A stretch of DNA of 64,000 nucleotides. It comes from Flavobacteriales bacterium (GTDB lineage Bacteria > Bacteroidota > Bacteroidia > CAIKAF01). This document shows positions 29,763 to 31,451 of this stretch, one piece after another. The first letter of the stretch is position 1, and every line of letters begins with the position of its first letter. The notes under the pieces are model-generated. The model searched no databases. It saw only the letters and a program-made list of their open reading frames with translations, and was not told the DNA's origin. The translations under genes were made by a program, and so were the position numbers. Location: NCBI GenBank assembly GCA_052437175.1, contig JBQVOK010000008.1, forward strand, positions 95,506 to 159,505. The letters are read 5' to 3'.

Positions 29763-30824
29763 TCAATTTTCATTGTCTTTCTCTTCATAGAGCTGAAGCA
29801 TTTTCCGGGCCTTTTTCTCCACGATCTTCCGCAGGCTGCGCGGAGCCAGTACTTTCATGCCATCGGCAAAACCGAGTATTTCCCGTTCCAGTTCATAATT
29901 CAGCTGTACCCGCAGGCTAATAATGATGCCCTCTTCGCTGCGCTGCATCACGCGCTGACTAGCGTGCAGGGGTTTGGTCTCCACATAGGGCGCCTGATCC
30001 CGGTTCACAAAAAGGCTTACGGTATGCAGACGCGCGCCTTCCGATACGGAAACACCCACTACATTACGGTAATATTCCCCGGGATCGATCCCCGGATTGG
30101 GCCGGTATTCCTCGTTTTCTGCCACTTCTGCTTCCAGGATACGGTCCAGCGCCAGGGTAAGCAGTTCTTTCTTTTTACCGCGCAGCCCCACCAGGAACCA
30201 GCGGTTCTTAAATTCCCGCAGCCACCAAGGATGAAAATAAAAAACGGCAGCCTCCCGGGCTTTAAAGGACTGATAACGTATAGAAAGGGCCTTATGCTGC
30301 ACGATGGCGCGGTACAGCATGTCCAGCCGTTCGATGCCCTTCAGGTGCTCATTGCTTTCCAGTATAATAAGCGGACGACTTTTATGTGTTTCCGTATACA
30401 CGTGATCTTCCAGCTTCTGGATCACTTCATTCAGCTGGCTGAAATGCGAAAAGCCACGGAACTGTTTCAGGATATCTACCGCCTCGTTCATGCGCGCCAG
30501 GTCATTGCCTGTAACCGGGATGCGCGTTATGGAATAATCGGGGTCCGAATAGCTGTAGTACTTATTTTCGGTAACGATCAGGGGGGCGTTGTAACCGAGT
30601 TTATCGCTGCGCATCACCTGTATATCGGCCTGTATGGTGCGGCGGCTTACCCCGCTGCGGATGCCTTCGTATTCGTACAGGGCGTCACTCACCCTTTCCA
30701 TCAGGGCGTCGAGCGTCCATTTGCGGTAAGGGTTCCGGAAACATTCGTCCAGAACTTTGTATCGGAGTAGTGCATTTTTAGTGACAGCCATAGACAAGGT
30801 ACGCATTCTATCTGCGCAGTTCAA
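29763..30824 (-). CDS. WYL-domain transcriptional regulator (HTH-WYL-WCX architecture)
   Basis: N-terminal HTH (NALLRYKVLDECFRN...WTLDALMERVS); central WYL core (...VFYFHPWWLREFKNRWFLVGL...); C-terminal WCX-like VLAPRSLRKIV. Confidence 0.7.
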   Translation of the reverse strand: MNCADRMRTLSMAVTKNALLRYKVLDECFRNPYRKWTLDALMERVSDALYEYEGIRSGVSRRTIQADIQVMRSDKLGYNAPLIVTENKYYSYSDPDYSITRIPVTGNDLARMNEAVDILKQFRGFSHFSQLNEVIQKLEDHVYTETHKSRPLIILESNEHLKGIERLDMLYRAIVQHKALSIRYQSFKAREAAVFYFHPWWLREFKNRWFLVGLRGKKKELLTLALDRILEAEVAENEEYRPNPGIDPGEYYRNVVGVSVSEGARLHTVSLFVNRDQAPYVETKPLHASQRVMQRSEEGIIISLRVQLNYELEREILGFADGMKVLAPRSLRKIVEKKARKMLQLYEEKDNEN

Positions 30825-31075
30825 ATATAGCGGAAAAATGCAGGAAAAAGATAGAAATTTTCAAGCCTGAAAAACAGCATATTGACCATTATTTTATGCT
30901 TACTTTAAAAGTACGCAGATATACTGCGTAGTAGCTTGTCAGCTTTGTACAGTCAAACTGAAACAACGTTCTTAAACATATTGCTGCAAGGCAAAACACG
31001 CTGAAAAGGTCCATGGGTATCTGTAATGCCCGTCGGTGCAGGCTGCTGTATTCCGAAGATCTTTTCCGGCTTCCA

Positions 31076-31165
31076 ATGGGGTTCGATTCCCCGCTCAGGT
31101 TCCATCTGAGACCCGGTAAAACGGGGGTTTAATGACACGCAGGTTCGAATCCTGCTCCCTTACAG
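31076..31165 (+). other. Two tRNA T-arm-like motifs, the first followed by an encoded CCA; a tRNA-like fragment or ncRNA module
   Basis: GGGGTTCGATTCCCC at 31078-31093 followed by GCTCAGGT-T-CCA ending at 31105; GCAGGTTCGAATCCTGC at 31139-31155. No complete cloverleaf could be folded by hand. Confidence 0.35.
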
Positions 31166-31199
31166 GGATAGCTTAGCGGCCAAGCACATGATTGTTAAT

Positions 31200-31440
31200 C
31201 ATGCAAACGAAGACGGTCCCTTCGTAAAAAGACCGGTCCCTGCAGAAGTGTCCGAAAGGCCCGCAGAAGCGCTCCGGCGTTATACTGCAACCCGTACGGG
31301 TACCGGGAAACCGCCACCTGCGCCCCATACCTTTTCTCCGGCACCAGCCCGCTGAGAAAGGTCCAGGCAACAGGCCGCCGTTTTCTGCTCCCGGAAAGGC
31401 GGACGATCCGGCACTTCTGCTTTTTTACGTAACAATTTAA
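31200..31440 (+). ncRNA. Candidate structured RNA or leader: GC-rich, highly self-complementary, ending in a U-tract
   Basis: 10-bp long-range pairing GCAGAAGTGC (31242-31251) with GCACTTCTGC (31421-31430) followed by TTTTTT; a perfect 12-nt palindrome ACCCGTACGGGT; several GGCGG/CCGCC helices; sits directly upstream of the Rnl/Pnk operon. Confidence 0.3.
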
Positions 31441-31451
31441 ATACATATACT

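Follow-up and report, generated by a model that had tools for sequence, protein, structure and literature searches.

In a 64,000-nt stretch of DNA from a Flavobacteriales bacterium (contig JBQVOK010000008.1, positions 95,506 to 159,505; this whole stretch is called the window here), a gene for a WYL-domain transcription factor lies head-to-head with the genes for an SPFH/Band-7 protein, a T4 Rnl1-type RNA ligase and a T4-type polynucleotide kinase-phosphatase (Pnkp). Between the two sides, two copies of a palindrome and a tRNA-like RNA are found (Table 1). A first, sequence-only reading had described this arrangement as spanning a structured intergenic region of 627 nt. The head-to-head orientation stands, the distance does not: The orthologues of the regulator open with MPVNRNAL..., and a -7 box and an operator occupy positions 30800-30829, so that the gene most likely starts at the ATG at 30791 rather than at the TTG at 30824. 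The distance is therefore 660 nt.

Table 1. Features of the regulator/RNA-repair locus in the window. wHTH, winged helix-turn-helix; MFE, minimum free energy; L081, locus of a close relative.
Feature	Position	Strand	Basis and remarks
wHTH-WYL-WCX transcription factor	29763-30791	(-)	342 aa from ATG at 30791; Pfam and Foldseek
Operator O1, TACGCATTCTATCTGCGCA	30800-30818	no strand	exact palindrome; overlaps predicted start site of regulator transcript
Predicted regulator -7 box, TATATTTG	30822-30829	(-)	fits TAnnTTTG perfectly; kept in L081; putative function
Operator O2, TACGCAGATATACTGCGTA	30912-30930	no strand	exact palindrome; upstream of repair/RNA promoter
Predicted -7 box of RNA/SPFH-Rnl-Pnkp transcript, CAGCTTTG	30940-30947	(+)	CTTTGTA spacing; putative function
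Conserved non-coding RNA or operon leader	30955-31426, ends approximate	(+)	conservation in L081
Two tandem circularly permuted tRNA-like units	31062-31200	(+)	covariance model R1
Unit 1, T-arm 1	31078-31092	(+)	
Unit 1, closed acceptor hairpin 1	31094-31110	(+)	
Unit 1, D-arm analogue	31112-31125	(+)	
Unit 2, T-arm 2	31139-31155	(+)	
Unit 2, acceptor hairpin 2	31156-31168	(+)	
Unit 2, D-arm 2	31169-31186	(+)	
Anticodon-like hairpin, loop UUGUUAA	31187-31203	(+)	
H-type pseudoknot candidate	31208-31234	(+)	P1 CGAAG/CTTCG; loop GGTC pairs with GACC past an A-rich linker
Structured 3' domain	31242-31426	(+)	closing stem 31242-31255 with 31407-31420, T-run 31421-31426; inverted repeat I3, MFE fold, kept in L081
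Cytoplasmic SPFH/Band-7 protein, RNA-repair-associated type	31452-32549	(+)	Pfam Band_7 E=4.8e-35
T4 Rnl1-type RNA ligase	32634-33659	(+)	Pfam RNA_lig_T4_1 E=3.6e-19; motif I KLDG in translation
T4-type Pnkp	33678-34559	(+)	Pfam HAD_PNKP E=5e-50, AAA_33 E=1.9e-19

The WYL assignment of the sequence-only reading holds in profile and in fold searches. The open reading frame 29763-30824 on the minus strand matches Pfam WYL (PF13280, E=5.2e-12, 46 bits at a cutoff of 21.8) and, in its C-terminal part, WCX (PF25583, E=2.8e-11, 44 bits at a cutoff of 23.9). The PADLOC WYL models match it with 9e-27. A search of a set of 5.8 billion proteins scored ~6,000 homologues among 8,000 candidates taken; the best are ~60% identical and belong to Cytophagales, Chitinophagales, Saprospirales and Flavobacteriales. 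The AlphaFold model (mean predicted local distance difference test score, pLDDT, 69) divides into a bundle of three helices plus a hairpin at the N-terminus, a helical linker, the β-rich WYL domain and WCX. Residues 5-80, which form the three helices and the hairpin, have pLDDT values mostly of 76-84, with 54-59 at both ends. A Foldseek comparison of this model with the Protein Data Bank (PDB) returned DriD first (8tp8, E=5e-14, ~340 aligned columns), followed by PafBC, BrxR and CapW. A sequence-only PDB search found the same families, weakly.

On the divergent strand, the Pnkp translation shows the P-loop GSGKST and the HAD phosphatase motif DLDGT. The ligase scores 80.8 bits against the NCBIfam model of T4 RnlA, which is under the model cutoff. 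Because the NCBIfam equivalog cutoffs are missed, Rnl1 and Pnkp of the window are, as judged from these profiles, relatives rather than orthologues of the T4 proteins. For the SPFH protein, a counterpart with 100% identity is encoded in a Flavobacteriales metagenome-assembled genome; homologues of SPFH adjoin genes for RtcB, Rnl, PrfH and RNase_T.

The pairing of the regulator with RNA repair is conserved. For 80 genome loci with regulator orthologues (50-61% identity to the window protein), the open reading frames upstream of the regulator were called and clustered, and the clusters were named by Pfam. The count was limited to the 69 loci with at least 2 kb of upstream DNA and to genes on the divergent strand within 9 kb. 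RtcB, SPFH, Ro60, Rnl, Pnkp or RlaP are encoded there in 56 of the 69 loci, and the nearest repair gene lies at most 1.7 kb from the regulator in 49 of these 56. By our own rough estimate, which supposes such genes once or twice per genome, a repair gene would be found near the regulator by chance in ~1% of cases. The clusters comprise RtcB (29 loci), SPFH (27), the nucleotidyltransferase RlaP (19), Ro60/TROVE (13), Pnkp (8) and Rnl (8); PrfH and a TROVE-like DUF2828-vWA protein are encoded upstream in further, single loci. Combinations vary and include SPFH-RtcB, RtcB alone, Ro60-RtcB, Ro60-Rnl-Pnkp, Rnl-RlaP-Pnkp and RlaP-RlaP-RtcB. Downstream of the regulator, no family recurs in more than 6 of 72 loci. 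The sequence-only reading had asked whether WYL orthologues are consistently adjacent to Rnl1/Pnk and had considered that orthologues in unrelated contexts would make the adjacency fortuitous. The first question was too narrow, as Rnl/Pnk genes are present in only ~8 of the 69 loci. As to the second, the contexts are related by function, with the identity of the partner varying. Judged from gene neighbourhoods, the pairing is not fortuitous, and what is conserved opposite the regulator is the function of RNA repair rather than the Rnl/Pnk genes in particular. The gene order of the window (WYL, gap, SPFH-Rnl1-Pnkp) together with its two-operator layout does recur on a Saprospiraceae contig (Flavilitoribacter, L086), whose SPFH protein is only 46% identical. 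L086 is one of six loci (L081-L086) added later to the set, which thus comprises 86 in all. When five loci with SPFH homologues were sampled, the regulator was adjacent in two.

Several other gene sets accompany the regulator or the SPFH gene. In L029 (5835-8066), L055 and L073, the place of the known repair genes divergent from the WYL gene is taken by a family of ~743-aa proteins with no Pfam match, possibly a repair or scaffold protein that has so far gone unrecognised. In Chitinophaga and relatives (L013, L019, L020, L023 and L028), a larger fixed cluster occupies the 9 kb upstream and comprises SPFH, a small unknown protein, a membrane protein, a PhyH dioxygenase, two RlaP and an RNaseH-like PF04308 protein, with a second, weaker tRNA-like match near its far end. 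In Saccharicrinis (L083, 1-13101), repair genes are found on both sides, RtcB-PrfH-TPR on the WYL strand and SPFH-RtcB divergent from it. This locus lies among AbiEii, PDDEXK and AbiC-like genes, a defence-island context unlike that of the window. Sets of bpX/bpMoxR genes (AAA+ MoxR-type systems) are located just downstream of SPFH, with no WYL gene, in L082 (8524-13098) and L085 (8009-13101). In L082 and L084, SPFH is paired with a metallophosphatase, RNase_T and an Rnl2-type or RLIG1-like ligase.

A palindrome search upstream of the regulator revealed a 19-bp operator with the consensus TRCGCA-N7-TGCGYA. With one mismatch allowed, it is present within 250 nt upstream of the regulator start in 61 of the 80 loci, and in 43 of these it falls into the bins between -51 and -70. 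Of the 86 loci, 74 carry exact copies, and extra copies within the larger clusters precede RtcB, Ro60 or the tRNA-like RNA. The window contains exactly two exact operators in 64 kb, compared to 0.02 expected (shuffle mean). The palindrome thus lies where the own and divergent promoter site of a WYL factor would be expected, and it is taken as the predicted binding site. In compact loci, a single site is located between both genes; the two-site layout of the window is also found in L086.

The -7 promoter element of Bacteroidetes has the consensus TAnnTTTG. On the repair side, CTTTGTA follows the operator after 12-13 nt in most of the 80 loci and in L086, and it fits this element, which makes it a candidate promoter. 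In the window, a transcript controlled by CAGCTTTG at 30940-30947 would be expected to start near 30953-30957, and this places O2 at about -23 to -41, the usual place of the -33 element. On the regulator strand, O1 directly follows TATATTTG and would therefore cover the regulator's own start site. A σ70 promoter scan was discarded as uninformative for Bacteroidota. Compared with the close relative L081, whose regulator is 90% identical, O1 is unchanged (100% identity) and O2 differs in one base that still fits the pattern. The 93-nt spacer between O1 and O2 has clearly diverged, whereas the sequence from O2 up to the start of SPFH is well conserved (alignment A4, 91% identical overall). As judged from this comparison, O1, O2 and the whole RNA are under selection, but the O1-O2 spacer is not.

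Could the adjacency be merely inherited gene order, with the WYL protein controlling itself or distant genes and the palindrome being another factor's site or an RNA hairpin? Some SPFH loci do lack an adjacent WYL gene, and it is from sequence that we infer regulation by the WYL protein. Yet the identity of the partner changes while the pairing persists across several orders, and the gene order downstream is not conserved. Moreover, where regulator and repair promoter are separated, the palindrome is found with each of them. It stays with the regulator where repair genes are not adjacent (L022, L052, L062), and exact copies stay with the RNA-SPFH unit where the regulator is not adjacent (L082, 5226-5244; L084, 5179-5197). 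The latter two loci, with no WYL gene within 6 kb, suggest that their regulator is encoded elsewhere. In comparative work, an association that holds in both directions is commonly taken to speak for a factor and its site. The RNA hairpin was rejected: The operator arms are invariant in sequence and show neither covariation nor compensatory changes, and for this reason the palindrome is read as a putative protein-binding site. Taken together, we regard mere inheritance of gene order as very improbable.

The sequence-only reading had termed the intergenic region structured. This is correct, and the region holds more than structure: a conserved RNA with two tandem, circularly permuted tRNA-like units. 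Neither ARAGORN nor Rfam at gathering level found anything in the intergenic region of the window; the RNA was revealed only by permissive Rfam scans, with weak matches to tRNA (23.8 bits) and YrlA (22.5 bits), and by a purpose-built covariance model. A T-loop-like motif, GGTTCGA(A/T)TCC, is present twice, 62 nt apart, and the same pair precedes SPFH in nearly every SPFH-type locus. In the alignment, the elements are ordered as follows: a closing stem, T-arm 1, a loop-closed acceptor-like stem, D-arm 1, T-arm 2, the closed acceptor hairpin 2, D-arm 2 and, in most cases, a hairpin with an anticodon-like loop of 7 nt. As read from this alignment, the order is that of a tRNA cloverleaf that has been circularly permuted, as in the tRNA-like domain of YrlA. 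Among 16 aligned sequences, which exclude the window, 95% of the cells are paired, and double changes occur at 21 of the 27 pairs. The covariation score is 0.68, compared to 0.27 for shuffles and at most 0.21 for slid partners. Model R1, built from the same alignment, matches window positions 31062-31200 over its full length (50.9 bits, E=4.6e-12). It has 72 matches in the 80 loci, all on the repair-gene strand, and also matches all six later loci. Single tRNA-like units are found beside Ro60 genes. Thermodynamic folding of the RNA core is not significant (z=-1.4 to -1.7), and only the full 481-nt stretch reaches z=-3.0. The case for the RNA is therefore built on covariation and not on energy. 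The acceptor stem of unit 2 is closed by a 3-nt loop, so this unit would be a tRNA mimic which cannot be charged.

The RNA family shows further features. The loop of unit 2, UUGUUAA, reads GUU (Asn); at the same place, other loci have UUU, CAG, AAG, ACG or UAG. About 60-110 nt upstream of T-arm 1, a 5' RNA domain with two covarying stems (ACCnGATGAGGGTTTCTGnATAGCCCCATAGT...GGTATGCTG, e.g. L008, 9829-9895) is conserved. Its nhmmer profile has 22 matches, in SPFH-type loci only, and scores nothing in the window, whose version is too diverged and resembles the domain by eye only. Some loci also have genuine tRNA genes in the stretch that separates WYL from SPFH, oriented like the repair genes and, in the two arrays, on the minus strand. 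L048 (~7,300-10,000) contains nine of them (Asp, Lys, Gly, Met, Leu, Trp, Cys, Phe, Thr) and L065 (~8,400-10,000) eight (Asn, Leu, Arg, Pro, Lys, Gln, Asp, Tyr). In other loci, one genuine tRNA-Lys, Phe, Tyr or Pro is located at the array position and replaces or supplements the tRNA-like RNA.

Downstream of the tRNA-like units, an H-type pseudoknot is predicted. Its P2 helix pairs at 60 of 60 positions in 15 loci, with 10 distinct pairings, and none of 10,000 shuffles equals this in a register that was chosen by the analyst. For the latter reason, the pseudoknot is suggestive, not proven. With its A-rich linker, it has a layout like that of the preQ1-I riboswitch, and no Rfam match was found for 31208-31234. 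The 3' domain that follows ends with a long stem and a T-run and may be an attenuator or terminator. Consequently, one has to ask whether the tRNA-like RNA is the main regulated product, with most transcripts terminated at 31421-31426 and SPFH-Rnl-Pnkp expressed by read-through or separately. This would agree with the position of stem and T-run just upstream of SPFH and with 12 loci where no repair parts other than the RNA and SPFH were recognised beside the regulator. On the other hand, SPFH starts only 25 nt after the T-run, this gap shows no -7 box, and the order RNA-SPFH-ligase is conserved. We consider it unlikely that the RNA is the main product.

The three lines of evidence – pairing, operator and RNA – converge on one reading: The WYL protein is probably the dedicated transcription factor of the divergent RNA-repair module. 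A WYL dimer would bind the 19-bp palindrome. By binding O1 on the start site of the regulator transcript it would control its own synthesis, and by binding O2, which is centred ~32 bp upstream of the repair transcript start, it would control the repair promoter. The repair transcript would open with the ~470-nt RNA, comprising two permuted tRNA-like units, the pseudoknot and the structured 3' domain, and continue into SPFH, Rnl1 and Pnkp; the RNA may be processed from this operon transcript. SPFH as a scaffold, the Rnl1-type ligase and Pnkp might heal and reseal tRNAs cut in the anticodon loop in the manner of T4. This set matches the 'syntax' of RNA-repair systems: a scaffold, a cofactor RNA, end-healing and sealing. 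A nucleic-acid ligand on the WYL domain is supposed to switch the operon on, most plausibly RNA fragments from ribonuclease attack. Thus, the circuit might play in Bacteroidota the part that RtcR plays for rtcBA in Proteobacteria.

Several points weigh against this reading. Domain architecture, conserved pairing, the operator with its position and the RNA structure are results of computation, whereas DNA binding by the WYL factor, its ligand and the sign of regulation are deduced from them. No helix-turn-helix was found by the Pfam search at the N-terminus of the regulator, and the wHTH is drawn from a model of moderate confidence (pLDDT 69). In three of the five sampled SPFH-type loci there is no WYL gene within 6 kb, i.e. 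the regulator is not obligatory, and 13 of the 69 orthologue loci lack a recognised upstream repair gene. The T-run just before SPFH could partly uncouple the RNA from the protein genes. An operator centred near -32 fits repression and activation alike; the proteins closest in fold are activators, which stand in for the -35 contact, whereas CapW and BrxR are repressors. Finally, to our knowledge, all solved relatives with a known ligand (DriD, PafBC and CapW) bind single-stranded DNA (ssDNA), not RNA.

The last point leads to a variant of the same circuit in which the signal is ssDNA from DNA damage or phage replication and the repair module is one branch of a response to DNA damage or infection, as is the case for DriD, PafBC and CapW. 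The fold matches agree with it, since DriD and CapW have been solved with ssDNA and PafBC is among the closest folds, and so does the orthologue locus in Saccharicrinis with its abortive-infection genes. However, the conserved partners are all RNA-end-healing, RNA-sealing or tRNA-like, DNA-repair genes do not recur, and the neighbourhood in the window is housekeeping (ATP synthase beta, glycosyltransferase). We consider an ssDNA signal possible, albeit doubtful. RNA fragments as the ligand of the WYL factor are suggested purely by the regulon and by analogy to RtcR (PMC7790460). A bolder version, to which we give little credence, assigns the tandem tRNA mimic the role of a sentinel: Anticodon nucleases would cut unit 2, the resulting fragments or ends would be the WYL ligand that switches on SPFH-ligase-Pnkp, and the pseudoknot together with stem and T-run would set the read-through into the enzymes. 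If true, this would be a self-contained loop of decoy substrate, sensor and repair, and the first WYL factor with an RNA-damage ligand.

The sequence-only reading had stated that, to its knowledge, a WYL-controlled RNA-repair module had not been described. This is too strong. Passages of two papers from the Aravind laboratory (PMC9503650, PMC7824862) have WYL/CARF factors regulating RNA-repair pathways, and both cite Burroughs and Aravind 2016 for the WYL factors. WYL control of RNA repair is, therefore, already in print as a prediction, and the locus is a well-supported member of the predicted class. Experimental studies on a WYL factor controlling RNA repair were not found in the literature reached. 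The same holds true for descriptions of the operator with its one- or two-site promoter layout, of a phylum-wide tally and of the tandem permuted architecture with its pseudoknot; operator and RNA architecture may be new detail. A passage of the YrlA preprint (bioRxiv 10.1101/312249) attributes to Burroughs and Aravind the prediction of a 'band 7-associated tRNA' in the neighbourhood of genes for Band-7 and RtcB. The tRNA-like RNA lies directly upstream of the Band-7/SPFH gene both in the window and in SPFH-type loci; it is probably this RNA predicted in 2016, matched by position and not by a comparison of sequences.

Only in enterobacteria, with their RtcR system, have the signals and substrates of bacterial RNA-repair operons been worked out in some detail. 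The locus would add a second, unrelated and phylum-wide control circuit with convenient handles: a 19-bp operator, a small one-component sensor and a conserved tRNA-like RNA. The circuit is present in genera with cultured isolates (Chitinophaga, Spirosoma), and with it the question of the RNA-repair signal becomes testable in a second system. If the WYL domain does read damaged RNA, the range of WYL ligands would extend beyond ssDNA, and a role of tRNA mimics in repair could be tested.

On the far side of the regulator, after a gap of 23 nt downstream, the window has three paralogous genes in tandem (28355-29739, minus strand), which encode small secreted proteins with a TonB_C domain. They are shared with the close relative L081 and absent beside other orthologues. 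As they are not conserved beside the regulator orthologues, they were rejected as part of the unit.

Among known systems, DriD from Caulobacter and PafBC from Actinobacteria are the best structural matches of the window factor (DriD 8tp8, see above; PafBC 9fnd, E=7.5e-11), at an identity of only 16-19%. Like it, they have a wHTH-WYL-WCX architecture and are nucleic-acid-sensing one-component regulators. They are activators of the DNA-damage response with ssDNA as ligand and DNA-damage genes as regulons, and PafBC is a fused or heterodimeric pair. By contrast, the predicted target of the window factor is an RNA-repair set, and its predicted operator is a symmetric 6-N7-6 palindrome. The repressors CapW of CBASS and BrxR of BREX are encoded divergently or adjacently, bind a palindrome within the promoter region common to both sides and control their own expression. 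The window displays a comparable layout, known from its sequence; the fold matches (E ~1e-7 to 1e-6) are weaker than with DriD, and CapW and BrxR control phage-defence effectors, not repair enzymes.

The enzymes of the window belong to the same two families as Pnkp and Rnl1, which restore tRNAs in phage T4, with catalytic motifs that can be read in the translations. Unlike the T4 pair, they are encoded on the chromosome of a Flavobacteriales bacterium and linked there to SPFH, to a tRNA-like RNA and, by prediction, to a dedicated regulator. YrlA (RF02553) resembles the window RNA in its T-arm, loop-closed acceptor stem and D-arm and in its location in an RNA-repair operon beside a scaffold protein. 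All matches stay under the YrlA gathering score of 69 bits: a scan of seven loci gave none at this level, the window has 22.5 bits, and the two units of L086 come to 45.2 and 30.7 bits. Furthermore, the window RNA has two units in tandem, of which unit 2 includes a full anticodon-like hairpin, and a pseudoknot comes after them. YrlA lies beside Ro60 (Rsr) and carries a Ro-binding stem, whereas the window RNA adjoins SPFH and no TROVE gene and has no recognisable Ro-binding stem, although no search was aimed at this stem.

The closest functional counterpart is RtcR (rtcBA/rsr-yrlBA-rtcBA, Proteobacteria), a sensor-regulator divergent from an RNA-repair operon with tRNA-like non-coding RNAs that is activated by damaged tRNA fragments (PMC7790460). 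RtcR is a CARF-AAA+ σ54 activator. A CARF domain or a σ54-interacting AAA+ domain was not found in the window factor, for which Pfam returned only WYL and WCX. The analogy drawn in the sequence-only reading, RtcR-like control by a different regulator family, is thus reasonable on functional grounds. By this analogy, the likeness is one of function and not of ancestry: The window factor would work like RtcR without being a member of its family.

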